Below are positions 9,678-37,927 of a DNA stretch of 48,488 bases, piece by piece (position 1 is the stretch's first letter; every line of letters starts with the position of its first letter). The translations under genes were made by a program, and so were the position numbers. This stretch comes from a virus (lineage: Duplodnaviria; Heunggongvirae; Uroviricota; Caudoviricetes). Under the pieces are notes generated by a model, which saw only the letters and a list, made by a program, of their open reading frames with translations, did not search any database and was not told where the DNA came from. Location of the stretch: the IMG/VR virus record IMGVR_UViG_2597490154_000001; one strand, written 5' to 3'.

Positions 9678-9679
9678 TT

Positions 9680-10213
9680 ATGATGCACTTAAAAAATATT
9701 ACTGCTGGCAACCCTAAAACAAAAGAACAATACCAGCTAACGAAACAATTTAACATCAAATGGCTTTATACAGAGGATGGGAAAAACTGGTATGAGGAAC
9801 AAAAGAACTTTCAGCCTGATACGTTGAAAATGGTCTATGACCACAACAACGTTATTATTTGTATTGAAAAGGATGTTTCAGCAATTAATCCAGAAGGCGC
9901 AAGCGTCGTTGAGGTTCCTGATATTACAGCAAATCGCCGGGCTGATATTTCGGGTAAATGGATGTTCAAAGATGGCGTAGTGATAAAGCGAACTTATACC
10001 GAGGAGGAACAGAGGCAGCAGGCAGAGAATGAAAAGCAAAGCCTGTTGCAACTTGTCAGGGATAAAACCCAGCTATGGGACTCACAGCTACGGCTGGGCA
10101 TCATTTCCGACGAGAATAAACAAAAATTAACCGAGTGGATGCTCTATGCGCAGAAAGTCGAATCTACAGACACCTCCAGCCTGCCAGTAACATTTCCCGA
10201 ACAACCTGAATGA
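9680..10213 (+). CDS. tail fibre assembly protein (Tfa/U-like)
   Basis: 177-aa ORF immediately after fibre gene; N-terminus MMHLKNI shared with inverted paralogue. Confidence 0.8.
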
Positions 10214-10216
10214 GAC

Positions 10217-10241
10217 AAGGCCCGATAGCGGGCCTTAATTT
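10217..10241 (+). terminator. rho-independent terminator between convergent Tfa genes
   Basis: Hairpin AAGGCCCGATAGCGGGCCTT followed by T-rich run. Confidence 0.6.
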
Positions 10242-10769
10242 TTATTCAGGCTTTTGTGGCCATTCAGGATTTGCCGTATCCACACGGCTGACCAGAACAC
10301 TGTAGCGTTCCCATGCTTCCAGTCGTGTGCGTTCCTCGTCTGTTGCCATATTCAGCCTGACAGCGCGTTCCAGCGGCTGGATGACTGATTCAGCTTCGGA
10401 AAACAATGCGGCCTTTTGTGATTCGGCTTGTTGTTGCTGTTCGTCTGCCGTATAAATCCGTTTAACTACAGCTCCATCCTTAAACATCCACTTTCCTGAA
10501 TCATCGGCACGACGATTGGCTGTTATATCTGGAATCTCAACGACACTAAAGCCTTCGGGATTAAGCGTTGAGGCATCTTTGGTTATGGCAACAATAATAT
10601 TATTTTCGTCGTATACAATCTTTATGGTGTCGTCCTGAAAGTTATTTACTTCCTCATACCAGTTTTTACCGTCCTCAGAGTAAAGCCAGACAACTCCGTG
10701 TTTCTTTGTTAATTCATACTGTTCCAGTGTTTTAGCGTTACCCGCTTTTATGTTCTTTAAGTGCATCAT
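10242..10769 (-). CDS. alternative tail fibre assembly protein (U'-like)
   Basis: 175-aa ORF on - strand, paralogue of 9680-10213, inside invertible segment. Confidence 0.8.
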
Positions 10770-10770
10770 A

Positions 10771-11790
10771 TTAAACGCTCGCTACATTATACCAGGTGCC
10801 ATTTATATACTTTTGAACGGGTCTGTAATAAACGCCCGCTATATTATCGGCAGAATTGGACCCTGTATCCTGAACATTAATACCAGTCAATACATGACCT
10901 GACGGGCACTGGAAATTCCATGTTTGCCAGTTATTCACGCCATAATATCGCTGTGAACCAAGTCGAACATCTTTCACATAACGGGAATCAAAGTTACCGT
11001 AATCTGAGGGATTAACACGCCCTGTAATATTTATGGTTTTATTACTTTGAATACTGCCGGAGACAAAGCGCATAACATGGACGTTATTAGCATAAACATC
11101 CAGATACCCGTCGCCATTTTGTTTAAATCCCGTGTCATTATCACCCAAAACAATCGAGTTACCGCCAAGAGCACTGGATGTTCCGATGCCCAGTGCACCA
11201 TTCAATTGACCGCCAGATAATGACAACGCCCCAACCTCAGCAGCAGTCGGTTTAATGTGCGAACTGTAAATTACATATACAGTTCCATCTGTCAGGCCTG
11301 TTGGTTTATTCGCTGTATAAGTTGGTGATGTATGAATCGTTACGCTGGCGTTACTGGTATAATCCCACTGAATATTAACACCTGTGGCGTAATTACCTAT
11401 TTCAACATAAACATCATAGGTATTACCGGATGTATTCACCCATGCAAAATTAGTAAATCCAACCGATGTCCGTCGCCATAATGCACCAGTAATACCTTTT
11501 GGATTCCCATTTCCGGCACGCAGAACCAGCTCAGAGATGCCTGCTTGATGCGAGGAGCCAACGTTATACCCTGCGCCACCAATCAGGCTTATGTAAACCA
11601 CGGAACTGGCTTGTGGCATTGTTACAGTTGCCAGTTTGAACCATCCAGCACCACCACTAAAAGACATGGTTGTTGAATTTGTTGTGCCGATATTACGCAG
11701 GAATAGTTTTTTATCGGGAATATCTGCGCCGTTCTGTTTTTTCTGTAATGCGCCAGAAGCCTGATTTACCGTTTCCTGTAAACCGAGGTT
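10771..11790 (-). CDS. silent alternative tail fibre C-terminal cassette (Sv'-like), expressed only after inversion
   Basis: Reverse frame open from crossover site to stop at 10771 with no stops; ORF track shows internal Met at 11667; shares junction peptide with expressed fibre. Confidence 0.75.
11717..11788. repeat. right arm of inverted repeat bounding the invertible segment
   Basis: Reverse complement of 8723-8794. Confidence 0.9.
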
Positions 11791-11798
11791 TTTGCGAA
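11773..11798. other. gix/hix-like recombination crossover site (right)
   Basis: TTCCTGTAAACC-GA-GGTTTTTGCGAA, two 12-bp half sites around a 2-bp core. Confidence 0.7.
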
Positions 11799-11862
11799 TT
11801 GCCTCTGTGTCGTCTGAACGATATTTTTTCCCGCTTTTAGCAACAATCGCGGTTTAGAAAGT

Positions 11863-12417
11863 ATGCAATATGGTTATGCGAGGGTGTCAACTTTTGACCA
11901 GAATTTGGAATTACAACTGGAGGCGCTCAGGAGTTTAGGATGTGACCGGATTTTTGAAGATAAAATATCCGGTGCTAAATCAAAACGACCAGGACTTGAT
12001 AAGCTACTTAAGGTGTTACGGCCGGGCGATACGGTTATTGTCTGGAAGCTGGACCGAATGGGGCGTTCCCTGATTCATCTTGTTGATTTACTTAACCATT
12101 TTTTATCAAACAACATTGAGTTTATTTCGATTACGGAAGGGATAAAAATTAGCACTTCAATTGGCCGCTTTGCCTACACGATGCTGAGTGCAGTCGCAGA
12201 GATGGAGCGGGAAAATATGATTGAAAGAACGCGTGCAGGATTGGCGGTGGCAAGGGCTAACGGCAGGATAGGAGGACGCCGCTCAAAGCTGGCACCAGAG
12301 CAATGGGAACAGATCGGAAGACTTATTGCGAATGGTGTTTCACGTAAGCGGATAGCGATTATCTTCGATGTTACCTTATCCACGCTTTACCGCAGGTTTC
12401 CGGCTGGGAATCATTGA
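11863..12417 (+). CDS. site-specific DNA invertase, serine recombinase of the Cin/Gin/Pin/Hin family
   Basis: 184-aa ORF; N-terminal YARVSTxDQ catalytic motif, resolvase-like core and C-terminal HTH; high similarity to P1 Cin as I recall it; adjacent to inverted repeats. An internal Fis-dependent enhancer is expected by family knowledge but not located. Confidence 0.95.
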   Translation: MQYGYARVSTFDQNLELQLEALRSLGCDRIFEDKISGAKSKRPGLDKLLKVLRPGDTVIVWKLDRMGRSLIHLVDLLNHFLSNNIEFISITEGIKISTSIGRFAYTMLSAVAEMERENMIERTRAGLAVARANGRIGGRRSKLAPEQWEQIGRLIANGVSRKRIAIIFDVTLSTLYRRFPAGNH

Positions 12418-14114: not shown

Positions 14115-14204
14115 ATTTCCTATTAGACATAGAAAACTTGTCTTATACGCAATGTAGTAAATTTCTATTGCCACATAGGAAAAGATTTCCTACCATCGTA
14201 GATA
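14115..14204. repeat. three ~20-bp imperfect direct repeats (ATTTCCTA...CATAG), candidate regulator binding sites
   Basis: Copies at 14115-14136, 14161-14183, 14184-14204, just upstream of HTH gene 14211. Confidence 0.5.
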
Positions 14205-14210
14205 TAATAA

Positions 14211-14510
14211 ATGGAGATGGTTATGGATAAAGATACTGTTTTAAAAATGTTGAATCCGGCTTGTTTAAAAAAAGCGGATGAATGGGAATCTCCTACATGT
14301 GGAGAAGTTCGGGCAGTCATTGGCCTGACTGGAATGAGCGGCTCGCAGTTGGCCAAAAAACTAGGCTTAAAAGATAGTCGCAATGTTCGCAACTGGCAGA
14401 TGTTAAAGGAGTCCACATCCAGATCCAGCATTCCGTATGCAGCCTGGGCGCTGCTGTGTTACTTCGCTGGGTTAGGGTTAATCTTCATTGATAACAAAAC
14501 AGATGTTTGA
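14211..14510 (+). CDS. helix-turn-helix DNA-binding protein
   Basis: 99-aa ORF with central HTH-like segment (GLTGMSGSQLAKKLGL); overlaps the next ORF by 4 nt. Confidence 0.5.
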   Translation: MEMVMDKDTVLKMLNPACLKKADEWESPTCGEVRAVIGLTGMSGSQLAKKLGLKDSRNVRNWQMLKESTSRSSIPYAAWALLCYFAGLGLIFIDNKTDV

Positions 14511-14797
14511 AACATGCAAATATGAGGTTTGTTATGGAACTTGTACGCAAAACACGCAAAGAGTTCTTGGACCTGTATCGCATGGGAGCTTTCACTTGTG
14601 TTGTGGCTACCCAGGACGAAGTGACAAAAAGCTGGCGGCTTTTTGCTCTCAATAAAAAAGGGATTGCCGTTTTCATTGAAAAAGCCCGTGGTGGTATCCG
14701 CGAATGGGCGGGATTGAATTATGTGGCTGATTTTTGCGCAGCTATGGGGATTCGTCGCTGGGAAGTCCATATGCCAGGAGTAAAGTCACAAAAATAG
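14507..14797 (+). CDS. hypothetical protein
   Basis: 96-aa ORF translationally coupled to the upstream HTH gene. Confidence 0.4.
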   Translation: MKHANMRFVMELVRKTRKEFLDLYRMGAFTCVVATQDEVTKSWRLFALNKKGIAVFIEKARGGIREWAGLNYVADFCAAMGIRRWEVHMPGVKSQK

Positions 14798-15730: not shown

Positions 15731-15851
15731 TGCTCATGGAATTATATAATTATAGATTTATATAAAAAGTGCTTTACAGGTGGGACAATATTTCCTAGTG
15801 TTATACCCGAAACCGAGCGATACCCGCCCTGGTTAAACCGGAGATAACCCG
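15731..15851 (+). promoter_or_regulatory. copy 1 of a triplicated promoter/leader cassette (AT-rich motif, TTTACA -35, conserved ~50-nt leader, SD)
   Basis: Near-identical to 25433-25544 and 32064-32174; ends at the ATG of the downstream gene. Confidence 0.6.
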
Positions 15852-16232
15852 ATGAGCATGATTAAAATCCGCAAAAACGCTTTCCTTAAAATTCAAACTA
15901 TCCTGGCTGGTTCTGTTGGCGTGATTTGCCGTTCTTCTTCAAGCCGCATCGATGACGGCTACGATGATGAGTATCGTGTGTCCTCGTGCGATGAGGCTTT
16001 AACCTGGCTGAAGGAGAATCAGGAACGTGCCCAGGTATATCTGGAAACAGAGAACGGCAATCAGATGCTGCGTATTAGCGGTCGTTATGGATTTGAAACT
16101 ACATTCATGGCCTATTTTAATCAGGCTTACTTTGACAAGGAGCTGGCCTGGTACACTGATCGCATGAGCAAAAGCGAGCCAGCCCCGATTACACCGCCGA
16201 ACAATAAATCATTTTTATTCCTCGTTAAGTAA
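15852..16232 (+). CDS. hypothetical protein driven by cassette copy 1
   Basis: 126-aa ORF with SD GGAG; no recognisable family. Confidence 0.5.
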   Translation: MSMIKIRKNAFLKIQTILAGSVGVICRSSSSRIDDGYDDEYRVSSCDEALTWLKENQERAQVYLETENGNQMLRISGRYGFETTFMAYFNQAYFDKELAWYTDRMSKSEPAPITPPNNKSFLFLVK

Positions 16233-17377: not shown

Positions 17378-18520
17378 TTATGGTCTGCTTTTCTGTGCCA
17401 GCTTATCAGCACATGTTTTTATCAGATCCTGTAGTGTCCTGGCTGGCAGGTTTGCATCCAGTACGCTGAGTATGCTGTTGTGATCAGCCTGGTCGATTAC
17501 TTTGCCTGTCGGTGGTAGTAGCTTGAGCTGAGGATTCAGGTTTTCGTCAAAACTGATAAGTGCTCTGGCGTTTCTGAGCAGATCAAGAAGTAAGGCTGAT
17601 ATCACATCATCTTTAGTCATTGTTGGTAGATTTAGTGCCGCTTTAGTTTTCTCCGTCGCCTTGTCAAACTCTTTGATTAGTGTCTTGCGGTAGTTTGGTT
17701 CCGTTAATAGCCGATGATGTTCTGTTGCCGTTCGGATAATCTTTGTTTCCTGATACAGTCGGTTGTATAGCATTCGCTCGTATTCTGCCTTTAACACGCT
17801 GCTGATAGCGTTAAAGGCTTCAATGTAGGCCAGCTTGATATCCTTCACGCCTGGACCGTCGATACTTTCCATGAGCAAGGTAAATCCGTCTTTTGTCATG
17901 CGATAGATTGTTATTTCGCGGTCGCTTCCTTCCAGCGGTCGTTGTTCTTTAAAGAAGTGACGCGCCGCAGCCGTGCGAGGAATGCGTAACGCATCGATGG
18001 CCATAACGATGGAATTGTTTGTGGTGCTGAATGCTTGGGCAACATCGGCTGAGGTTGTGAGTGGCTCGTTGTTGCACACCTTAACGTAATACATTGGTTT
18101 AGCGTTGAGCGTATCGACAACCTCACGAGCATTGTTTGGTGAGACGGTTACGGTCGCGGCCGTTTGCGCGTTCTGGTTGAAGTAGCAGTCTTCCAGCCGT
18201 TCGAATACATCCCATGCCTGATCGGTTTCGAGCATTTTAGCGTGACGTGCAGCCCCGCGTTCGGTCCAGAGGATGAGCTTTCTAACGTTATTCGCGATGG
18301 TTTGAAAATCTCTTAAAGAGATTTTCAAACTTTGGAGATCTGTACCTTTTACAACTATGAAATGTTTTCCTTCTGTAAACCGGGACTTATTACGGTGGTG
18401 ATTTCTGTGAAGACATTCGACGCTACAGCCATATAGTTTGGCAAGCAGCTCCGTGGTGATAACGGGGAGCTGGTTATGCAGGATAGGCTGTAGGGTGTTA
18501 ACGGTCGGAAGCGTTTTCAT
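17378..18520 (-). CDS. phage antirepressor (KilA-N/ORF6N-type N-terminus with Ant-like C-terminal part)
   Basis: 380-aa ORF; N-terminal region resembles antirepressor N-domains; start overlaps the upstream small ORF (ATGA). Confidence 0.6.
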   Translation of the reverse strand: MKTLPTVNTLQPILHNQLPVITTELLAKLYGCSVECLHRNHHRNKSRFTEGKHFIVVKGTDLQSLKISLRDFQTIANNVRKLILWTERGAARHAKMLETDQAWDVFERLEDCYFNQNAQTAATVTVSPNNAREVVDTLNAKPMYYVKVCNNEPLTTSADVAQAFSTTNNSIVMAIDALRIPRTAAARHFFKEQRPLEGSDREITIYRMTKDGFTLLMESIDGPGVKDIKLAYIEAFNAISSVLKAEYERMLYNRLYQETKIIRTATEHHRLLTEPNYRKTLIKEFDKATEKTKAALNLPTMTKDDVISALLLDLLRNARALISFDENLNPQLKLLPPTGKVIDQADHNSILSVLDANLPARTLQDLIKTCADKLAQKSRP

Positions 18521-18708
18521 TTTGCACCTCCCATAACTACTTTGGTTACGAGGGAGATTTTTGCGACAGAAACAGCGTTATCGTTGCTGGCGATGCGCAT
18601 AGCTTCGCGCTCGATGATTTCAGCCAGGCGGAATTTATCGGCGTATGAGGCTTTCTTGAGAAGGATCTTTACGAGGTTGACGTAATAGTCATGGGGTAGG
18701 TTTGTCAT
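18517..18708 (-). CDS. small protein translationally coupled to the antirepressor (in the position P1 icd occupies)
   Basis: 63-aa ORF, 4-nt overlap with ant start; preceded by antisense-RNA-like hairpins. Confidence 0.4.
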   Translation of the reverse strand: MTNLPHDYYVNLVKILLKKASYADKFRLAEIIEREAMRIASNDNAVSVAKISLVTKVVMGGAK

Positions 18709-18865
18709 TGTGATGATTCCCTTAAAGGTTAAGGATACTCACCACCGTCAGGTTCCAATCATTGGGTGGTGAGACGTGCAGGGTTGGAACTACCGGACAC
18801 AATGACGAACCGGCGAGTCTTACGACTCCCCCGCACGCCCCACCATAATTTGGGTGTAGCAGTGC

Positions 18866-18960
18866 TTTACGCATAAAAAAACCGCTAACGCGGTATGCGC
18901 CATTGTGTCTACGGGGTTCCAATCCCGACCGTAGATTTTGCTACGGCTAGGAAAGTGTCC
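18866..18960 (-). ncRNA. candidate c4-like antisense RNA with its own terminator
   Basis: Hairpin 18911-18934 displays GGTTCCAATC in the loop; - strand terminator (ACCGCG..CGCGGT then T7) at 18866-18890; complementary elements at 18750-18760 and 18783-18790 in the icd-like leader. Confidence 0.35.
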
Positions 18961-19868: not shown

Positions 19869-20252
19869 TGCTGATCGGATTCGCGGTCCTTTCAGCATAA
19901 CGTCGTTGTACTAATACAACCACGCAAGCACAAACAGCAACTACATTCTTACCCAACTGAGGTGAATAGTCCACTATTCATATAAAAAAATTTAGCTCAT
20001 TAGCTCATGCAAAATGAAGGTTTTTAACTTATTTACGTGTAATCTTATGTAATAAAAGCGTTTTTTATTCCTTCATTATGAAGGGTATGACGTGTAATAT
20101 GGCTTGGGGCCTTTCCGCCGATTCGCACCCGGGCACTGACTTTCAGGAAAGGATTATCCACTTGCCGTACCACGCAGGCACAAACAGCGTGCTTGCTCTC
20201 GCGTCATTTTCGTCGGTGGGGATGCCGTGAAACGGCCTGTAAGGGCCACACA

Positions 20253-20375
20253 ATGAAAAAATACTACATGTGTATTTTTATCGTTGTTACTGGGGCTTTG
20301 TTTACGCCACATGGAGAGGGTTGGAAGATTACTGATAACGCTCTGAATGTGACGATAAACATTAGCAGCAAGTAG
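20253..20375 (+). CDS. small hydrophobic protein (40 aa), function unknown
   Basis: MKKYYMCIFIVVTGALF...; SD-like AAGGG 8 nt upstream; own terminator immediately downstream. Confidence 0.35.
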   Translation: MKKYYMCIFIVVTGALFTPHGEGWKITDNALNVTINISSK

Positions 20376-20380
20376 CGATT

Positions 20381-20404
20381 AGGCCCCTTCGGGGGCCTTT
20401 TTTA
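20381..20404 (+). terminator. rho-independent terminator
   Basis: AGGCCCCTTCGGGGGCCT followed by TTTTT. Confidence 0.65.
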
Positions 20405-20625: not shown

Positions 20626-20874
20626 TTACTTCTGGTTGTATTGAGCCTTGAGTAACTCAAAAGATTTTGTCAGCACTTCTTTCAATGACATATCCATTGA
20701 GCTGGCGAACGTTTTGTACTCGCGTTTAAATTCAGGGTCGACGTTAAACGCCATTTGTGCCCCACCTGATTTGGTTCTGGCTGGCGTTTCAGTCGGGTCG
20801 AAAACCTGCGGTTGTTCGATCGATGGCGGTACGCCTTTGCTGTTCTTCTTTGGTGGTTTTGATGGTGCGGCCAT
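20626..20874 (-). CDS. ParG-like small partition protein (basic, probable ribbon-helix-helix)
   Basis: 82-aa ORF immediately downstream of the ParA-like ATPase. Confidence 0.5.
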   Translation of the reverse strand: MAAPSKPPKKNSKGVPPSIEQPQVFDPTETPARTKSGGAQMAFNVDPEFKREYKTFASSMDMSLKEVLTKSFELLKAQYNQK

Positions 20875-20888
20875 GTGTATCCTCTCTT

Positions 20889-20921
20889 ATATAAATCTAT
20901 AAAACTATAATTATATATTAC
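20889..20921. repeat. AT-rich motif site (TATAAATCTATAA / ATAATTATATA family) between the two par genes
   Basis: Member of a dispersed motif family with at least 8 sites in the window. Confidence 0.6.
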
Positions 20922-21586
20922 GCGGCAGTAGTCAGAGCCTCAAGCTGGTTGATAATCCCCTGAATAACGTCGTCTGCTTTTTTGCGTGGCGCAACGTATG
21001 AGCACTCAATGAGGCTTAAGCCTTTATCCTGAGCTTTGCTCAGAGCTGGCTTGTGGGGAATGTACTTATCGACAACAAAGTATGGCGTATTAGCCAGGTA
21101 CTCTTGGGCTTCAATATAGTCAGCTTCGTTTTCAGCCGCGCCGGAAAACACCATGCAAATTTTCTTGATTGGTACACCCTTTTTAACGATGCCGTGAGCT
21201 GTGTTAACGGTGGTTTCCAGGTCATCGGTAGAGAATCTGGTTGGCAAAATAACCATATCCAGAAATTCAGAGAGCTTCGGTACTGATTCAGATGCGTAGG
21301 CACCGCCATCAACGATAACCAGGTCGTATACTTCTGATTCGATGATTTTCTGGACTTGTGATGGCGTGCCGCACGGCTGCGCCGCGATTGCAGGTTCGAT
21401 ATTGTTGGCCATTCTGCGTTGTACCCAACGCGTTACCGTTCCGTTAAGCACATCCATATCGATCAGGCATACATTCCAGCCAGCCTTTGCATAAGCAACT
21501 GCTAAAGCACGAGCAATGGTTGATTTGGTTACGCCGCCTTTTCCGTTGAAAATACCTACAGATATAGTCATTTGTCGAGACTCCAT
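20918..21586 (-). CDS. ParA/ParF-type partition ATPase (small Walker-type)
   Basis: 222-aa ORF with deviant Walker A GKGGVTKST near the N-terminus. Confidence 0.85.
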   Translation of the reverse strand: MESRQMTISVGIFNGKGGVTKSTIARALAVAYAKAGWNVCLIDMDVLNGTVTRWVQRRMANNIEPAIAAQPCGTPSQVQKIIESEVYDLVIVDGGAYASESVPKLSEFLDMVILPTRFSTDDLETTVNTAHGIVKKGVPIKKICMVFSGAAENEADYIEAQEYLANTPYFVVDKYIPHKPALSKAQDKGLSLIECSYVAPRKKADDVIQGIINQLEALTTAA

Positions 21587-21593
21587 GTGTTTG

Positions 21594-21699
21594 ATTATAT
21601 AATTCTATAAATCTATATTTATAGAATGAGGTAAGCATAACCAACTTTTTGGCGGATGAAAAGTGTTTTATATAATTATATAAATCTATAATCATATAA
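21594..21699. repeat. two AT-rich motif sites upstream of the partition operon (candidate centromere/operator)
   Basis: TATATAATTCTATAAATCTATA at 21594-21627 and TATATAATTATATAAATCTATAA at 21669-21699. Confidence 0.55.
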
Positions 21700-22096: not shown

Positions 22097-22130
22097 GCGT
22101 AGCCTCTTTTATACTTTTTCATGTTGTCAA

Positions 22131-22147
22131 AACCACAAATCGTGGTT
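22131..22147. promoter_or_regulatory. operator-like palindrome AACCACAAATCGTGGTT, also a hairpin
   Basis: Perfect ACCAC-N5-GTGGT palindrome followed by T7. Confidence 0.5.
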
Positions 22148-22188
22148 TTTTTGAGCGTAGAAATGCACGGCTTTCGCCGTGCTGTGTA

Positions 22189-22851
22189 TCATAACCAGTT
22201 GACAACACTAACTACGCGGCCAAGAACTTTATAACGCTTAAATTCCTCGTTATTCAGATGCTTAGTGTTCATTTCAGCATCCCTTTCGGTTGACAGCATA
22301 ACAGCATTGTCACCCGGTATGACTCTACAGTGCCTCAAAACAACCAGGCCATTTCTGTCTTCAAGGGCATAGATCCCCTCATGAATCTCTGTATCGTCTG
22401 TATTAATCAGGACTTGGGAGCCAGGGGATATTGTTGGTGACATTAGCTTTAGCTCATCGTTGCTCTGGAGAACAGACAGAGACGATGGGTTGATGTTCTT
22501 GCTTCGTAGAATCTCCTGTTCTATCGCCAGCACTGGCTTTTCTCCGGCGTGCGATGCTATGTCATTTTTTATAGCTACAAGCCCAGGAATAACAGGTGCG
22601 TTAGTATTCTGGGGTGGGAACGGGTTATCTGTTAAGCACGCGATATAAGGCGCTGATGCTTTCAGGGCGTGCGCGATTTTCTTGATGGCAGGTATAGATG
22701 GTTGTCTTAATCCGGCCTCATAGTTCTGCAAGGTGCTTAAGCCTATTCCAGTGACTTGCTGGAGATCTCCGGCAGTCATGCCGGATTGTTTCCGTAGAGT
22801 CTGAATGCGCAGACCTATTTCTTTCTTGATGTTCTCGTCGTTGCTTTTCAT
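22189..22851 (-). CDS. CI-like prophage repressor (HTH plus S24 LexA-like peptidase domain)
   Basis: 220-aa ORF; N-terminal HTH; C-terminal Ser (LMSPTISPG) and Lys (RYKVLGRVV) motifs typical of autocleaving repressors. Confidence 0.8.
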   Translation of the reverse strand: MKSNDENIKKEIGLRIQTLRKQSGMTAGDLQQVTGIGLSTLQNYEAGLRQPSIPAIKKIAHALKASAPYIACLTDNPFPPQNTNAPVIPGLVAIKNDIASHAGEKPVLAIEQEILRSKNINPSSLSVLQSNDELKLMSPTISPGSQVLINTDDTEIHEGIYALEDRNGLVVLRHCRVIPGDNAVMLSTERDAEMNTKHLNNEEFKRYKVLGRVVSVVNWL

Positions 22852-22887
22852 TTCTCATCAATCGTGAATGGGGGGGTTATTTATACA

Positions 22888-23008
22888 TTACCACATTTAG
22901 TGGTTTTCACACGGTAAGACGAGAGGTAGACCACAAATAGAAGGTTATTTTTTGTTTCCCCATTGAAAAACTCACGATTTGTGGTTTTAATACCACATAT
23001 CGTGGTTT
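22888..23008. promoter_or_regulatory. divergent cI/cro-type promoter-operator region
   Basis: Palindromes ACCACATTTAGTGGTT (22890-22905) and ACCACATATCGTGGTT (22992-23007), plus two degenerate copies. Confidence 0.6.
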
Positions 23009-23024
23009 AACTGGAGTTAGTTAA

Positions 23025-24997: not shown

Positions 24998-25375
24998 GTG
25001 AGACGCGATCTGGATAGCTTGTTTGAGCTATGGGCGCTGTGGGTGCGCAATGGCTGCAACGCCCGTAGCGGTTTCGCGTCGATGTTAGAAATGATGATGG
25101 TTACGCGTTGCCAGTTTACCGGAGGGGGCGGCGCACCAAATGACTCACTGGAAACCAGTATCGAGGGAGCGGTGACGGCCCTCACGGTAGTTGATGAGAC
25201 TGCGGCGCTGGTTGTCCGAATTGAATACGGGGCGTGGGAGATTCGGGGCCTCGACATAAATGCACCGCATATTGATAAAGCCCACGCCCTTTCTCTTAGT
25301 CTCAGACAGTATCGCCGGAAGCTGGCAAAAGCCAGGGCGTATGTTGTCGACTATTTGAAAAAGCGAAGAGAGTGA
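24998..25375 (+). CDS. candidate Q-like late antitermination protein
   Basis: 125-aa ORF just upstream of a repeated promoter cassette; LFELWALW motif resembles the small Q-like family as I recall it; weak call. Confidence 0.35.
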   Translation: MRRDLDSLFELWALWVRNGCNARSGFASMLEMMMVTRCQFTGGGGAPNDSLETSIEGAVTALTVVDETAALVVRIEYGAWEIRGLDINAPHIDKAHALSLSLRQYRRKLAKARAYVVDYLKKRRE

Positions 25376-25432
25376 AAGTGTCATTTTGAGCTGTTTTGAT
25401 GGTGTGTAGACATCGGGAACATCGAAAATCTA

Positions 25433-25544
25433 TAAATATATAATTATAGATTTATATAAAAAGTGCTTTACAGGTGGGAAAAAATTTCCTAAGGTTATAC
25501 CCGAAACCGAGCGATACCCGCCCTGGTTAAACCGGAGAAATCTG
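25433..25544 (+). promoter_or_regulatory. copy 2 of the triplicated promoter/leader cassette (candidate late promoter)
   Basis: Identical over ~112 bp to 32064-32174; lies directly after the Q-like gene. Confidence 0.6.
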
Positions 25545-26612
25545 ATGAATAAACAAGTAATTATTTCTGACTGGATCAACAACCCTAACAGCCTGTTAAG
25601 CACTGATACTGGCTACCTATTACGCCATGTTAATGGTCGTATGGTCAAAAGCGATGAGCACGAAACCTTTTTCTTTGTTGAAGACGATGGGCGTATCTAT
25701 GAGGATGGTTACTCTTATGAAGCCCAAACTGGTTGTATCCCTGCGGAGCTGGTGGACGTAACAGAAGATCTGCGTAAAGCATGGCTTGAACAGCAGCAGC
25801 GCGGAGATGATTACGTAAACACCTATCAGGAACGCCAGAACGCGCGTCTTGCCCGATATATTGCTCGTGCAGAAAAAGCCAGAAAAGAAGGTGCGGTAGC
25901 GCATAAGCGAGCGCATGACCTGTTGGATGTGATCCCGTTAGGCCAGCCGATTTTAGTTGACCATTATAGCGCGAAAGGCCATCGCCGCCGTTTGTCTAAA
26001 GCTGATGCGTTATTCAGAAAAGCGTTTGTTGAATGCGAAAGTAAAGCATCACACTACGAGAGCAAAGCCGCAGGTGTTGGTCGTAATGGAATTTCGTCTG
26101 ATGATCCTGATGCGCTATTTAAGTTGCTTCGTAAGCTGCAAGGCTGCATGAAGTCACACGTCAAAATGAAGGCCGCAAATAAGGCCATTCGCAAATACAA
26201 AAAAGACCAATTACAGCAGCTTTCTGCATTAATCGATCTCAGGTTTACAGAAAGCGAAGCCAAAGAGTTACTGGCCGGAGATTTCTGTGGGCGCATCGGA
26301 TTCCCTTCATACGCACTGAGCAACAATAACGCCGAGATCAAACGACTACAGAGCCGTATTAAGGAGCTTGAATCGGTCAAGTCTGTAACAGGAGCACAGC
26401 GCGAAGAATACGACGACTTTTCTATGAAGATAGATCCAGAGGATAACCGCATCCTGTTTTATTTCCCTGGCAAACCAGAGGCAAACATTCGTTCGCTGCT
26501 TAAATCACGCGCCTTTAAGTGGAGTCCAACCCGTAATGCATGGGTTCGCAAGATTACTCCAAATGCCCTGGCTGATGCCCGATATCTGAAAGAATCGCTA
26601 TTGAAAGCCTGA
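25545..26612 (+). CDS. hypothetical protein (355 aa, coiled-coil rich)
   Basis: Driven by cassette copy 2; no confident family assignment. Confidence 0.5.
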   Translation: MNKQVIISDWINNPNSLLSTDTGYLLRHVNGRMVKSDEHETFFFVEDDGRIYEDGYSYEAQTGCIPAELVDVTEDLRKAWLEQQQRGDDYVNTYQERQNARLARYIARAEKARKEGAVAHKRAHDLLDVIPLGQPILVDHYSAKGHRRRLSKADALFRKAFVECESKASHYESKAAGVGRNGISSDDPDALFKLLRKLQGCMKSHVKMKAANKAIRKYKKDQLQQLSALIDLRFTESEAKELLAGDFCGRIGFPSYALSNNNAEIKRLQSRIKELESVKSVTGAQREEYDDFSMKIDPEDNRILFYFPGKPEANIRSLLKSRAFKWSPTRNAWVRKITPNALADARYLKESLLKA

Positions 26613-26644: not shown

Positions 26645-26677
26645 ATATAGAATTATATATTTATATAAATGTATAAG
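26645..26677. repeat. AT-rich motif site
   Basis: TATATAGAATTATATATTTATATAAATGTATAA. Confidence 0.5.
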
Positions 26678-29125: not shown

Positions 29126-29269
29126 GTATTGTTTTTTTATCGATCGATTAACCACATTGTGAAGGTTTTTTTATGGGGAAACCTTGTTTTAGGTGGTAAC
29201 TGGGTGTAGTGTTTCATTTAACGTAGTAAAACTGCGTTAAGCGATTACCGCGTAATTTGTTGCTTTATG

Positions 29270-29302
29270 AAGCCCTGCCTTTTTCGGCGGGGCTTTTTTT
29301 TT
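29270..29302 (+). terminator. strong rho-independent terminator immediately upstream of the lysis genes (tR'-like position)
   Basis: AAGCCCTGCC ... GGCGGGGCTT followed by T9. Confidence 0.75.
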
Positions 29303-30798: not shown

Positions 30799-30922
30799 TA
30801 CCGCCTGTGATTGGGTAAAGCCCATCTACCTGACTGATCACGATATCGATGTTATGGACCGCCAGACAAAGAAAGATATTCTGGCTCATAACAGGGCATG
30901 GGAAATCAACTGTCCAAAGTAA
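30713..30922 (+). CDS. o-spanin (Rz1-like lipoprotein) overlapping the i-spanin gene in another frame
   Basis: 69-aa ORF with signal peptide and lipobox-like LIASC. Confidence 0.65.
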   Translation: MYSRVLTIWLMTMLIASCGSRGSVPVVVDTACDWVKPIYLTDHDIDVMDRQTKKDILAHNRAWEINCPK

Positions 30923-30953
30923 TATATATTTCTATAATTATATAAATATATAG
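30920..30953. repeat. AT-rich motif site upstream of the tRNA
   Basis: AATATATATTTCTATAATTATATAAATATATAG. Confidence 0.5.
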
Positions 30954-31090
30954 TTACAACATTCTATGCGCTTTTCTCATTAGCGCACGCATCAACCATG
31001 TTTGTCTGATATGCCGCCGCGCCCAAAAATCCTGAATTTATTGGCTGGGATTTTCGTGCGCGGCGCCACACCAGACAAACAAATCAAATA

Positions 31091-31166
31091 TGGCCCCTTA
31101 GCTCAGTGGTTAGAGCAGGCGACTCATAATCGCACGGTCATCGGTTCAAGTCCGGTAGGGGCCACC
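31091..31166 (+). tRNA. tRNA with CAU anticodon, most like tRNA-Ile2 (lysidine) rather than initiator tRNA-Met
   Basis: Folded by hand: 7-bp acceptor stem GGCCCCT/AGGGGCC, D-stem GCTC/GAGC, anticodon loop CTCATAA, T-loop GGTTCAAGTCC, encoded CCA; G1-C72 pair excludes initiator. Confidence 0.9.
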
Positions 31167-31475
31167 AATTCACTCTCACACATAAAGATAAGCGCGGTGG
31201 AGTTACTTCTTCGTGCTCATCTTTATGTGTGCCTGGTGCACATTTCGGGAAGCCGTTGGTTAGTGAGTACAGGCAGGGCCTGTTATCCGCAAAGGGGTAA
31301 AAGCTGGAGCGGCACGGAACTGTAGCCGTGTTACCAAAACAGCGTTGTCGGGCGATATCCGGCACACAACAGGCAAGGGCATTAATCAGTCTGGTTAGTG
31401 CCCTTTTCGTTGTGTCTGCTGTAGAGCTGGCCAGCGTTATGACTGCCGGAGATAAGCGCCGGAGGCACAACTAAC

Positions 31476-32063
31476 ATGGAGGCAATTGCATTGTTTAATC
31501 TGATTTATGCAGATCCCCCCTGGGAATACAAAGATAAGTGTAAGGATGGGAATCGTGGAGCTGGTTTTAAGTATCCAACGATGAAAGCTGAGGATATTGC
31601 TCGTATTCCTGTCTGGCAGCTTGCTAATCCTGAATCGTGTTTGTTGGCCATGTGGTGGGTTCCGACTCAGCCAGAAGAAGCGTTGCTGGTGGTGAAAGCA
31701 TGGGGATTCAGGCTTATGACCATGAAGGGCTTCACATGGAACAAATGTGGTAGCCGACAACCAGATAAGCTGGTGATGGGGATGGGGCATATGACTCGTG
31801 CAAACAGTGAAGATTGCTTGTTTGCGGTAAAAGGCAAATTGCCGACCCGCCTTGATGCGGGGATCATTCAGTCGTTTACATCGCCTCGTCTGGAGCATTC
31901 TCGGAAGCCTGATGTGGTTCGTGACAAGCTGGTAAGGCTGTTAGGTGATGTTCCTCGTATTGAGCTGTTTGCTCGCGGTGATTTACCTGATGGTTGGCAT
32001 GGCTGGGGCAACCAGTGCAATGGAGGTATCCAGTTGCATGATGCTCTCTGGCAAGTGGCATAG
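31476..32063 (+). CDS. MT-A70 family N6-adenine DNA methyltransferase (orphan)
   Basis: 195-aa ORF with catalytic DPPW motif (IYADPPWEY) near the N-terminus. Confidence 0.8.
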   Translation: MEAIALFNLIYADPPWEYKDKCKDGNRGAGFKYPTMKAEDIARIPVWQLANPESCLLAMWWVPTQPEEALLVVKAWGFRLMTMKGFTWNKCGSRQPDKLVMGMGHMTRANSEDCLFAVKGKLPTRLDAGIIQSFTSPRLEHSRKPDVVRDKLVRLLGDVPRIELFARGDLPDGWHGWGNQCNGGIQLHDALWQVA

Positions 32064-32174
32064 AATTATATAATTATAGATTTATATAAAAAGTGCTTTA
32101 CAGGTGGGAAAAAATTTCCTAAGGTTATACCCGAAACCGAGCGATACCCGCCCTGGTTAAACCGGAGAAATCTG
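32064..32174 (+). promoter_or_regulatory. copy 3 of the triplicated promoter/leader cassette
   Basis: Identical to copy 2 over ~112 bp. Confidence 0.6.
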
Positions 32175-32444
32175 ATGAAAGTACAAGACCGTGAAGTAGT
32201 AAAAAACCTCCTGCAATACCTGACCTCAAAAAACCTGACGGGCAGCGTTGAGTTCCGTGAAGCGTTAAAACATTTCAACGTCACTACGGTTTATCGTTGG
32301 GAAAACAAACATTCTGAAAGACCGTATGTGGTGGATGTTTTTGCGCCTGATATTGAGTGCGGTTTTGAGCGTCATTCGTTCAAGGAGAAACATTCTGCTG
32401 ATTTTTTTTGTGAGGTTGTATGTGCGGCAGGAGATGATGAGTGA
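32175..32444 (+). CDS. hypothetical small protein driven by cassette copy 3
   Basis: 89-aa ORF with SD GGAG. Confidence 0.45.
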   Translation: MKVQDREVVKNLLQYLTSKNLTGSVEFREALKHFNVTTVYRWENKHSERPYVVDVFAPDIECGFERHSFKEKHSADFFCEVVCAAGDDE

Positions 32445-32641: not shown

Positions 32642-32663
32642 ACCGTAACGATAACGAACAACG

Positions 32664-32690
32664 AGCCTCGGCAATTGCCGGGGCTTTTTT
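32664..32690 (+). terminator. rho-independent terminator
   Basis: AGCCTCGGCAATTGCCGGGGCT followed by T6. Confidence 0.65.
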
Positions 32691-33360: not shown

Positions 33361-33388
33361 CAGCCTCGCGTGTCGCGGGGCTTTTATT
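33361..33388 (+). terminator. rho-independent terminator
   Basis: CAGCCTCGCGTGTCGCGGGGCT followed by TTTTATTTT. Confidence 0.6.
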
Positions 33389-34046: not shown

Positions 34047-34670
34047 ATGACAAAACATCTTAATGTGGTTTCTTTACCACTTTCTGTGTTGATTGGTTAT
34101 GAAAAGAACGCTCGCACACACTCCGTGGAGCAGGTAGATCAGATTGTTGCCAGCATACAGGAGTACGGATGGACTAATCCGATCCTGATAGACGAGAACA
34201 ATGTTGTAATTGCTGGTCATGGTCGAATTGCTGCGGCCACTCAGTTGGGGATGGATGATGTTCCCTGCATTGTTCTGGAAGGGCTAACGGAGAATCAGAA
34301 GAAGGCATATCGTCTGGCCGACAACCGTATTCCGCTGAATGCTGGTTGGGATGAAGAGTTGTTAAGCGCGGAGCTTGCAGATCTTGCGGCCGATGATTTT
34401 GCTCTGGACTCAATTGGTTTTACTCAGCGCGAACTGGATAACTTATTGAGTGCGGCGGTCTACGATGACACAGAGGGTATGGATATCCCATTTGAGAAGG
34501 ATGAGGCCAAATCAGGCGTAAAAGTTCAGTACCTGTCATTTGGAGGTCATAAAATCCCGGCAACGGATGAGGAAGCGGATCGTTTTGACTGCGCGGTGTC
34601 TCGTTATGTTGATGATAATGGCAGCTATATCGGATTTGTATCCGCATTGCTGGCTGGGGAGGTGTGCTGA
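34047..34670 (+). CDS. ParB-like nuclease (ParB N-terminal) domain protein
   Basis: 207-aa ORF with AGHGR motif; paralogue of 37337-37927 (~60% identity in the N-terminal 100 aa). Confidence 0.7.
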   Translation: MTKHLNVVSLPLSVLIGYEKNARTHSVEQVDQIVASIQEYGWTNPILIDENNVVIAGHGRIAAATQLGMDDVPCIVLEGLTENQKKAYRLADNRIPLNAGWDEELLSAELADLAADDFALDSIGFTQRELDNLLSAAVYDDTEGMDIPFEKDEAKSGVKVQYLSFGGHKIPATDEEADRFDCAVSRYVDDNGSYIGFVSALLAGEVC

Positions 34671-36043
34671 TGCTTCACCTCAATTACGACATAACGCACC
34701 TACGCGGCGCGGAATATAACCCGCGTTTTATCGGTGAGGATGATCTTGCGAGGCTGGCGGAAAGCGTCAGGGAGCTGGGGCTTGTGAAGCCATTGATAGT
34801 GCGCGGCGATTTGCTGGTGGCGGGACACCAAAGGACGAAGGCGCTACGTAAATTGGGAATAACGCGTGCTGCGGTGTATGTGTTGCCCTGTGAAACGACG
34901 GTATACGACGAAGTACGGTTTAACCAACTGCATAACGGAACGGATTTTGATAGCGGAGATGAGCGTTGCAGGGTGTCAGGTCTGGAAGATAAGCATGGTT
35001 TTGTTCAGGTATCGGCAAGCCAGATCTCAGGCAATATGCGCGCGAAAATGGCATATGTTCGAAAGAACATAGCGGAACTGGTTATCAAGTATGGTCCGTG
35101 GGGTGGTTGTGTTGCGACTCAGTCTGGTGAGGTTATTCACTGTGCTCAGTATGCATTAGCAGCGAAGATGACGCGCACACCGCTAACGGTGTTTGTGATC
35201 CCTGATGTTGAGAAGGAAAAATACCAAAGTTATCTGAATAAAACTTATGGTGTATTTGAGTATTCTCATCTGGAGAAAACAACATACATCCAGACGTATG
35301 CGCAGCTTATGCGGTTGCGTAATGGTGGCAGCCTGAAATCAAACCTGTATGAGTCGTTGATCCTCCCGATCATTGCCAAGACGCCAAGAGGAATTGATTT
35401 TGGTTCGGGGCAGGGAGACTACGCGCGAATGCTCAGGGCAAAGGGATATAACCTGCATGATCTCGAGCTTTTCCGCCGTAAGGGCGCTGGAAACACTCTG
35501 GATAGGGCCGCAACAAACCGGATGATTGATACGCTGGTGGACGACTTAAAAACGCGAGGGCGTTACGACTACGTGATTTGCGATAGCGTTTTGAACTCGG
35601 TCGATAGTGTCGAGGCTGAATGGTCCGTTCTGACGGTTCTAAAAGGCCTGTGTAAAGCTGGTGGGTCAATATTCTTTTCTGGTCGTAGCCGTGGAGAGCT
35701 GGAAACAGTCCTGAAGCAAACACAAGCGGCGAGTTCCAAAAGCCGGCTTTATTTTATTGATCATAACGGTTTTACCGCGTTGTACCGGAAGGGGCACTGG
35801 TTTTACCAGAAGTTTCACTCTGATGATGAAGTGAAGCAGTTGTGTCGTGTACATGGTTTCAGGATTAAGCGGTCAATATTCAACTGTAAGAGCTGGTATT
35901 TGCACGTCATTAACGATGATTCCCTTAGTTGGGCGAGTCTGGAGAAAGCTGTTCGTTTTGAGTTTGAGTTGCCGTTGCCTGGTGGTTCAACAATCGGACG
36001 ATCTGATGATGTGCTGGCGGCTTTCCGGCCGTTGATTAAGTAG
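34664..36043 (+). CDS. fusion protein: N-terminal ParB-like domain plus C-terminal class I SAM-dependent methyltransferase-like domain
   Basis: 459-aa ORF; AGHQR box; C-terminal GIDFGSGQGD, acidic residue after beta-2, YDYVICDSVL; no DPPY/NPPY or PCQ/ENV DNA-MTase motifs. Confidence 0.6.
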   Translation: MLMLHLNYDITHLRGAEYNPRFIGEDDLARLAESVRELGLVKPLIVRGDLLVAGHQRTKALRKLGITRAAVYVLPCETTVYDEVRFNQLHNGTDFDSGDERCRVSGLEDKHGFVQVSASQISGNMRAKMAYVRKNIAELVIKYGPWGGCVATQSGEVIHCAQYALAAKMTRTPLTVFVIPDVEKEKYQSYLNKTYGVFEYSHLEKTTYIQTYAQLMRLRNGGSLKSNLYESLILPIIAKTPRGIDFGSGQGDYARMLRAKGYNLHDLELFRRKGAGNTLDRAATNRMIDTLVDDLKTRGRYDYVICDSVLNSVDSVEAEWSVLTVLKGLCKAGGSIFFSGRSRGELETVLKQTQAASSKSRLYFIDHNGFTALYRKGHWFYQKFHSDDEVKQLCRVHGFRIKRSIFNCKSWYLHVINDDSLSWASLEKAVRFEFELPLPGGSTIGRSDDVLAAFRPLIK

Positions 36044-37336: not shown

Positions 37337-37927
37337 ATGGCTCTAAAAATCGAATATTTACCAGTCGGTAAGCTGCTCAGATATGCCAAAAATTCACGGA
37401 CTCATTCAGATGAGCAAGTTGAACAGTTGGTGAACAGTATCCGTGAGTTCGGTTTCACTAATCCTGTGCTGATCGATGAAAAGAATGAACTGATTGCGGG
37501 GCATGGGCGGCTTGCAGCAGCCGAAATTCTGGAAATGGATAAAGTTCCGGCGATTCGGTTGAGTAACCTTTCTGAAAAACAGAAGAAGGCGTACAGGATT
37601 GCAGATAACAAGCTGGCCTTAAATGCTGGCTGGGATATGCAGCTTCTGGCCGAAGAAGTCAAAGAGTTAATGGATGATGATTTTGATATTGATCTGCTTG
37701 GGTTTAATGATGCAGAGCTTGACGAAATGTTAAGCGATGAACAGCCGCAGGAAGAAGACGATAATTCTTCCCCTGTTGTTCAAATTAAGTACCTGGCTAT
37801 TGATAAAGAACGTATTCCCGCGACGGATATGGAAATTGCATTGTTGCTGGATGTTTATCGTCAGTACCACGATGCGCATGAAACGCATGAGGGATTTGTT
37901 CAGTATCTTGCTAATGGTTGCAAGTAA
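37337..37927 (+). CDS. ParB-like nuclease domain protein, first gene of the packaging module
   Basis: 196-aa ORF with AGHGR motif; overlaps the small terminase start. Confidence 0.7.
   Translation: MALKIEYLPVGKLLRYAKNSRTHSDEQVEQLVNSIREFGFTNPVLIDEKNELIAGHGRLAAAEILEMDKVPAIRLSNLSEKQKKAYRIADNKLALNAGWDMQLLAEEVKELMDDDFDIDLLGFNDAELDEMLSDEQPQEEDDNSSPVVQIKYLAIDKERIPATDMEIALLLDVYRQYHDAHETHEGFVQYLANGCK

Follow-up and report, generated by a model that had tools for sequence, protein, structure and literature searches.

A triplicated promoter–leader cassette of probable IncP-1 kil–kor type in an enterobacterial phage-plasmid

Three copies of one cassette

We analysed a stretch of 48,488 nucleotides (nt) of tailed-virus DNA (Caudoviricetes; IMG/VR record IMGVR_UViG_2597490154_000001), hereafter called the window, with a focus on a promoter–leader cassette of about 110 bp that stands before three of its operons. 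The window is a phage-plasmid, and its cassette sequence is shared with the circular 48,488-bp plasmid pATCC25922_4 of Escherichia coli ATCC 25922. Its genes encode RepA, HigBA, a P1-type c4-icd-ant immunity module, ParA with a small protein, a CI-like repressor with a divergent early operon, lysis proteins and a myovirus head and tail set, and it carries an invertible tail-fibre segment. Phage-plasmids are common in clinical Enterobacteriaceae, and the coordination of their plasmid and phage lives is known for a few models, namely P1 and N15.

A preliminary description of the sequence had reported three copies of a promoter and leader, each ending at the start codon of an unrelated gene, with copies 2 and 3 identical. 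These observations hold. The copies occupy 15737-15851, 25431-25544 and 32061-32174, where the description had placed them, except that its start for copy 1 (15731) was too early, the copies beginning a few bases later. A repeat search grouped the copies into one family (15737-15863, 25431-25557 and 32061-32187), and the 39-nt leader core ACCCGAAACCGAGCGATACCCGCCCTGGTTAAACCGGAG occurs exactly three times, always on the + strand, against an expectation of 0 from 100 shuffles. Between copies 2 and 3 there is no difference from the AT-rich part through ATGAA, and the differences in copy 1 are confined to the promoter spacer and -10 and to the interval between the Shine–Dalgarno (SD) sequence and the ATG. 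The genes that follow encode a protein of 126 amino acids (aa; ATG at 15852, phrog_8090), one of 355 aa (ATG at 25545, DUF3560) and one of 89 aa (ATG at 32175, phrog_6143).

Each copy reads on the + strand and has the same three parts. In cassette 1, an array of 8-bp boxes (TTATAKAW; 15740-15767), which are putative sites of a ParG-like protein and also flank parA, precedes a promoter (15773-15801) with the -35 hexamer TTTACA (15773-15778), an OC-like 17-bp palindrome TGGGACAATATTTCCTA (15781-15797) and the -10 hexamer TAGTGT (15796-15801). The leader (15811-15854) then runs through a hairpin (15811-15834) and the SD sequence GGAG (15840-15843) to the start of the 126-aa gene. Cassette 2 comprises a box array (25428-25463; again putative ParG-like sites), a promoter (25467-25495; TTTACA, 25467-25472; OC-like palindrome TGGGAAAAAATTTCCTA, 25475-25491; TAAGGT, 25490-25495) and a leader (25505-25547) in which the hairpin AACCGAGCG-ATACC-CGCCCTGGTT (25505-25528) is followed by an SD sequence, GGAG (25534-25537), that lies within a mini-hairpin CGGA/UCUG upstream of the DUF3560 gene. 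The box array of cassette 3 (32058-32093) begins at the stop codon of an MT-A70 methylase gene and leads into a promoter (32097-32125; -35, 32097-32102; OC-like palindrome, 32105-32121; -10, 32120-32125) and a leader (32135-32177; hairpin, 32135-32158; SD, 32164-32167) for the 89-aa gene.

The palindrome, T(A/G)GGAAA-N3-TTTCCTA, is 17 bp long, fills the promoter spacer and overlaps the -10, and in all copies both it and the box arrays sit at fixed positions relative to -35 and -10. The -35 hexamer matches the consensus at five of six positions with a spacing of 17 bp; the -10 hexamers (TAAGGT or TAGTGT) are weak. When the leaders from E. coli, Salmonella and Klebsiella are compared, conservation begins at GAAACCG, about 8 nt past the -10, and the preceding bases vary, which fits a transcript start near 25503 in cassette 2.

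Homology to IncP-1 promoters and a KorC-like protein

The reading of the cassette as a promoter and leader for different operons gains its main support from base-for-base homology to the klcA and kleA promoter regions of IncP-1 plasmids, a comparison made on IncP-1 beta plasmids. Over the interval between -45 and the ATG, the cassette matches the regions upstream of klcA and kleA in pLME1 at 64-67 of 91 nt (about 70%), with z scores of 13-18 against shuffles. The parts also follow in the same order: AAAGTGCTT(G/T)ACAGG, a 17-bp palindrome over the -10, a hairpin and ACCGGAGAAA..GATG. The geometry of the palindrome, TAGGnnA-N3-TnnCCTA (7-bp arms and a 3-bp spacer), and its outer bases TAGG/CCTA are the same in pLME1 and in another compared sequence (L034). 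A klcA upstream query also matches the regions upstream of kleA in many IncP-1 plasmids, so that the promoter unit is repeated there too. One part differs. The IncP-1 promoters carry a KorA operator (GTTTAGCTAAA) directly 5' of AAAGTGC, at the position at which the cassette has its last 8-bp box; the KorA operator OA (GTTTAGCTAAAC) is absent next to the -35 of the cassette, and the window has no KorA homologue.

Promoters of the klcA/kleA type have been found experimentally to be repressed by KorA and KorC; for klcA of RP4, expression under KorA/KorC is very low and climbs some 120-220-fold in new transconjugants (PMC7314908). Several modules of RA3 have KorC as their main global regulator, acting at multiple promoters (PMC7414963). 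Our literature search found no paper connecting KorC with phage-plasmids.

The window encodes a candidate for the corresponding repressor. A helix-turn-helix (HTH) protein of 95 aa, encoded at 14223-14510 (+) in a gene that adjoins the replication origin, is 48% identical to the annotated KorC of the IncP-1 beta plasmid pLME1 (E 2e-18; 50% and 1.6e-18 by tblastn) and 52% identical to a protein of an IncP-like plasmid that lies at the korC position, after klcA and klcB. Apart from that IncP-like protein, its full-length homologues are found only on cassette-bearing plasmids. When ten IncP-1 backbone proteins of pLME1 were compared with the window by tblastn, KorC alone gave a match. The promoter of the korC-like gene (14168-14196, +) has TTGCCA and TACCAT hexamers 17 bp apart and a perfect palindrome, TAGGAAAAGATTTCCTA (14176-14192), of the form TAGGAAA-N3-TTTCCTA, in the same position as in the three cassettes; it has neither a box array nor the shared leader. 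The window thus contains four relevant matches to the operator pattern where 0.22 would be expected, and we propose the 95-aa protein as the repressor acting at them. That the best copy, a perfect one, lies in the promoter of the korC-like gene itself implies autoregulation, and in Salmonella a palindrome promoter is arranged likewise before the korC-like gene.

Relatives of the window add to this picture. Searches of IMG/VR with 31- and 18-nt leader cores returned only near-identical copies, and diverged relatives were obtained through protein-anchored look-ups, including with homologues of a 125-aa protein encoded at 24998-25375 (+). One of them, L026, has neither the korC-like gene nor the palindrome promoters. 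In L029, a Yersinia-type relative, an AT-rich array of its own is followed by TTTACA-CATAGGAATAAAATTCC-TATTAT and an unrelated leader; on sequence grounds, the promoter core predates the leader. Directly 3' of the korC-like gene lies an 87-aa gene (14534-14797) whose homologue adjoins RepA in L026.

The palindrome can also be read as the site of a phage activator, either the 125-aa protein or a small HTH protein, at activator-dependent middle or late promoters of P1 type, comparable to Lpa at the P1 '-22 region'; such an activator would substitute for a good -10/-35. The palindrome has its centre near -20, next to a weak -10, and the late promoters of P1 likewise consist of a -10 and a 9-bp element 4 bp upstream, are dispersed, and include one, LPpac, that directly follows lpa. 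However, the cassettes retain a good -35 at 17 bp, unlike the P1 late promoters, the palindrome has the geometry of a KorC operator in a window that encodes a KorC homologue, and homology of the 125-aa family to Lpa was rejected (hhalign probability 0.2%). We consider an activator of this kind very unlikely.

The shared leader bears on a further proposal. Over roughly its first 25 nt it forms a hairpin with a loop of five bases, into which each phage-plasmid and IncP-1 version folds on its own. On a MAFFT alignment, 93% of the cells are paired, as against at most 54% in slid controls, with two compensatory pairs. A second small hairpin, CGGA/UCYG, partly covers the SD sequence in all versions. 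Rfam gave no match at gathering score anywhere in the window and none at E <=1 within 25400-25620. A large riboswitch-like structure was rejected, the fold z scores being only -0.9 to -1.7, which leaves the small conserved hairpin. We also rejected the internal direct repeats (ATACCCG, twice) as protein sites, which are not kept in Salmonella or Klebsiella, and an action of the C4 antisense RNA (18762-18850) or the isrK-like RNA on the leader, for which duplex energies were no better than those of shuffles; the only complementary 9-mers of C4 are local to the immI operon, with none to the leader. That P1-type immI module spans 17378-18947 (-) and comprises, besides C4, the isrK-like RNA (18875-18947), an icd-like open reading frame (ORF; 18517-18708) and an ORF6N/Rha antirepressor gene (17378-18520).

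The preliminary description had suggested that the leader might serve Q/qut-type antitermination. The 125-aa protein, encoded just 5' of cassette 2 and with a putative sigma-region-4-like fold that may resemble Q21, would then be an antiterminator that loads onto RNA polymerase at the three cassettes through a Q-binding element (QBE) in the promoter or leader, as at Q-dependent late promoters, and reads through the terminators at 29269, 32663 and 33362 into lysis and structural genes. Its gene closes the CI-controlled early operon; the antiterminator Q21 is itself similar to sigma region 4, and the target promoter of a Q protein lies downstream of its gene (10.1101/651190). A factor-dependent promoter would also be consistent with the weak -10 hexamers. 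In addition, strong intrinsic terminators (29269-29296, 31375-31405, 32663-32686 and 33362-33382) stand inside long co-directional units on the + strand; their presence within gene strings that lead towards lysis and structural genes implies regulated read-through, for which an antiterminator would make sense.

The cassette itself speaks against this role. The same leader, hairpin and SD context precede klcA and kleA in IncP-1, so that the whole promoter–leader unit is common to the kle/klc promoters, and because the hairpin is conserved from IncP-1 plasmids without Q, it is not specific to Q. By inspection of the E. coli, Salmonella and Klebsiella leaders, no conserved -10-like pause hexamer (TAnnnT/AnnnnT) occurs in the first 30 nt or so. 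Nor did we identify in the cassette a direct repeat of 8-bp subsites such as forms the QBE of Q21, and its only promoter dyad has KorC operator geometry. No terminator is proximal to the promoter: each cassette enters an ORF directly, and termination signals first appear 0.56 kb (32663) and 3.7 kb (29269) further on, past coding genes. The Foldseek comparison of the 125-aa protein with Q21 is not significant (E 0.3-0.9), and the protein matches no Pfam Q family. Three relatives with a 59-63% identical protein (L026, L028 and L030) have no such cassette after the gene, and the palindrome recurs in the korC-like promoter, far from late functions. We therefore regard Q-dependent cassettes as unlikely; the 125-aa protein may instead act on transcripts from the early promoter. 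The CI-like repressor was rejected as a regulator of the cassette, its operators ACCACnnnnnGTGGT being found only around 22130-23010. These sites lie at 22130, 22890, 22971 and 22993, one of them 3' of the repressor gene and beside a 124-aa gene.

Box arrays, partition proteins and the spread of the cassette

The AT-rich part also occurs outside the cassettes, which supply three of eight intergenic loci with 8-bp-periodic arrays. With at least four TTATAKAW boxes in a row required, there are 28 overlapping matches at these loci, against 0 expected, and four of the eight loci lie directly 5' of a -35. Beyond the cassettes, one array (20887-20918) separates parA from the gene for a ParG-like small protein, two (21595-21626 and 21668-21699; together 21595-21699) bracket a putative parA promoter on the - strand (TTTTCA-17-TATGCT), and two are dispersed, between the DUF3560 gene and the next gene (26645-26676) and after the lysis genes (30922-30961). 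ParA, a small Walker ATPase of type Ib-like character, is clearly assigned (20918-21586, -). The ParG-like protein (82 aa; 20626-20874, -) is predicted to have a disordered basic tail and a strand-helix-helix arrangement, its structure model showing the disordered tail and two helices, and is our candidate for the protein that binds the boxes.

Comparison between lineages supports this assignment and, with it, the involvement of a ParG-like protein that the preliminary description had brought up. In L028 and L030, arrays of the GATATAAATATATC type occur in the par promoter and again right after the Q-like gene and before the holin gene; in L026, AATAAATAAATATTTAAT-type arrays occupy the par promoter and five other intergenic sites. 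The small par proteins of these relatives are only about 40% identical to the 82-aa protein of the window, as is that of a conjugative plasmid with CTATA-type boxes at par and between type IV secretion system genes. Within each lineage the motif at the par promoter is the dispersed motif, and between lineages it differs, which indicates that the box motif travels with the small partition protein; it covaries with the ParG-like protein in four lineages. The 8-bp boxes are accordingly taken to be putative sites of a ParG-like partition protein with a putative ribbon-helix-helix fold.

Several further features deserve mention. In several lineages, parA and also unrelated genes follow one conserved translation-start context, GGAGTCTCGACAAATG or GAGACCTCGACAATG (window 21565-21590, -; L028 2995-3012 and 6365-6388; L030 7130-7150; L029 around 2880-2900). 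A full-length match to the ryfA RNA (134.7 bits) at 20105-20403 (+), with its own terminator (20381-20398), adjoins the par genes and is possibly a small toxin/sRNA locus. Three proteins with ParB/Srx N-terminal domains, one fused to a methyltransferase, are encoded in the late region (34047-36043 and 37337-37927) and are distinct from the ParA/ParG-like system.

Some 70 complete genomes of E. coli contain the element, with a median of three cassettes per genome, and 211 of 214 cassette places are on plasmids. The triplication is also found on plasmids of Salmonella, Klebsiella, E. fergusonii and E. albertii and in three Yersinia phages. The three cassettes of a Salmonella relative are identical to one another and differ from those of E. 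coli at the same ten or so positions. That copies within a genome agree where E. coli and Salmonella differ indicates that they exchange sequence. One half of the earlier recombination idea is thereby borne out, as concerted evolution; the other half, deletion between cassettes, is not, as we found no cassette-by-cassette deletion product among the plasmids compared, nearly all of which keep three copies.

Given this exchange, the repeats could be recombination joints that spread between modules by illegitimate or homologous exchange and are kept identical by gene conversion, serving as promoters only, with the leader as a passenger. The concerted pattern would suit such joints, as would the Yersinia-type relative, which keeps the promoter and palindrome without the leader, and the movement of a cassette fragment into a conjugative plasmid. 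Set against this, the hairpin and SD context are kept across phage-plasmids and IncP-1 at about 70% identity, with compensatory changes, the operator and box positions are fixed in all copies, and some 70 plasmids nearly always carry three. It is improbable that the cassettes are joints of this kind.

Two plasmids carry fewer than three full cassettes. pCREC-544_3 (NZ_CP024829.1, 32 kb) is a shortened phage-plasmid derivative that has lost about 16 kb and has cassette 1 only; it was rejected as a product of deletion between cassettes, the retained cassette 1 standing before its normal downstream gene. A 28-kb conjugative cfr plasmid (NZ_CP037908.1) carries the box array, -35 and start of the spacer at 1444-1490, cut by an IS26 end, and has the HigBA module and a related pair of ParA and small protein in common with the window.

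Elsewhere in the window, a transfer RNA (tRNA) gene with anticodon CAT (31092-31167, +) is called Met by ARAGORN and Ile by PGAP; P1 also has a tRNA-Ile2(CAT). The invertible tail-fibre segment (8719-11840) has inverted repeats (8719-8801/11710-11792, 93%; 9761-10026/10423-10688) and contains two opposed tail-fibre-assembly genes, with a Hin-like recombinase gene at 11863-12417. Within a tail fibre gene, three tandem 132-bp repeats that are 91-92% identical lie at 7845-8319.

A proposed switch and its relation to known systems

Our preferred reading, to which we assign a probability of roughly 70%, treats the cassette as a sigma-70 promoter unit of IncP-1 kil–kor type that is doubly repressible and has its own 5' untranslated region (5'UTR). 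From the homology, site positions, co-occurrence and covariation set out above, we infer binding, repression, their timing and a role for the hairpin as follows. In the established plasmid-prophage, the KorC-like repressor would block RNA polymerase at the -10 and the partition protein would coat the upstream boxes, so that both silence three operons: that of the 126-aa protein and an HTH partner, the DUF3560 operon that runs towards the lysis genes, and the operon that runs towards the head and tail genes. On entry into a cell with neither protein, the three promoters would fire together until the repressors accumulate, as klcA of RP4 does after conjugation, and the korC-like gene would be autoregulated through the perfect operator in its own promoter. 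The 5' hairpin of the leader of about 42 nt would most likely set messenger RNA (mRNA) stability or the rate of translation. That the hairpin is an mRNA stability or translation element is the least certain step, and one in which we place low confidence.

Several points weigh against this reading. A scan for the sigma-70 consensus passes over the cassette promoter, whose -10 matches at only three of six positions, and this leaves room for an activator-dependent promoter. The E. coli cassette operators are imperfect, with one or two mismatches in the left arm, and the start site in the cassette is placed from the position of the -10 and the onset of conservation. The leader hairpin is no more stable than shuffles (z -1.1 to -1.7), and its covariation depends on the alignment, with two compensatory pairs on the MAFFT alignment and six in a gapless register. 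For the 82-aa family, the best match of its profile in the Protein Data Bank is TP228 ParG at a non-significant E of 0.49, and a fold search with a single-sequence model of the protein gave no useful matches. Finally, the switch-on of the three operons during induction of an established prophage is unexplained by the model.

A broader idea, which we offer tentatively and hold to be rather less probable than not, is that the phage-plasmid may wire its lytic and late operons to two regulators of plasmid maintenance, a KorC-type repressor and the centromere-binding protein of its partition system, instead of or besides CI. Whether the plasmid is newly arrived or established, and how much partition protein is present, would then directly gate phage development, and the eight arrays would act both as centromeres and as silencers or roadblocks. 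The family seems to carry a piece of the IncP-1 kil–kor system (repressor, operator, promoter and 5'UTR) before three phage operons, with the KorA operator exchanged for putative sites of the plasmid's own partition protein. Should the proposed repression hold, a simple, testable switch would consist of two small proteins and four promoters together with eight box arrays; the case would exemplify the passage of a regulatory module between conjugative plasmids and phages, and would offer a natural set of identical co-regulated promoters usable for synthetic control. It also counsels caution, in that identical promoter cassettes beside a Q-like gene need not be targets of Q.

The closest known systems are the klcA, kleA and kleC promoters of IncP-1 plasmids (RK2/RP4 and R751-type), which have the same order of parts: AAAGTGCTTxACAGG including the -35, the palindrome, the hairpin and ACCGGAGAAA-N-GATG. 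There, as here, one replicon has copies of the unit ahead of different operons and also encodes a KorC-family protein. The inner operator bases are AAA/TTT in the window and GCA/TGC in IncP-1. Unlike IncP-1, the window has no KorA, KorB, IncC, KlcA or KleA homologue, and 8-bp box arrays, putatively bound by a type Ib partition protein, take the place of the KorA operator (as at 25428-25463 in cassette 2). Downstream of the promoters lie phage genes and genes of unknown function, whereas IncP-1 has kil genes, and the korC-like gene of the window has its own operator-bearing promoter, whereas korC stands at the end of the klcA operon in IncP-1.

For the partition side, ParF/ParG of TP228 pairs a small ParA with a downstream protein of about 80 aa in which a flexible N-terminal tail leads into a strand-helix-helix, a layout also predicted for the pair in the window. 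The parH/OF sites of TP228 are tetramer boxes with AT-rich spacers and share the 8-bp period (PMC3130281); the box sequence is ACTC in TP228 and TATA(G/T) in the window, and the TP228 sites cluster near the par genes whereas those of the window are dispersed. The omega protein of pSM19035 is a ribbon-helix-helix partition protein whose short contiguous repeat arrays overlap three promoters; it is a centromere binder and global repressor in one and requires at least four contiguous repeats (PMC9499535). The window similarly has arrays of at least four boxes at several promoters of one replicon, at which binding is here only predicted. Each repeat measures 7 bp in pSM19035 as against 8 bp in the window, with no sequence relationship, and the window arrays stop 7 bp 5' of the -35, whereas those of pSM19035 overlap their promoters; some of the window arrays lie in intergenic gaps without a promoter.

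Among phage-plasmids, P1 as annotated repeats short sites (C1 operators and late promoters) before many operons, with one protein controlling all of them, as is proposed here. In N15, partition centromeres (sopC) are reportedly scattered among phage genes and influence their expression, an observation attributed to Ravin and Lane. The regulators concerned, C1, Lpa and SopB, are unrelated to the window proteins, and whereas P1 and N15 repeat the operator alone, the window repeats a whole 110-bp unit that includes the 5'UTR.

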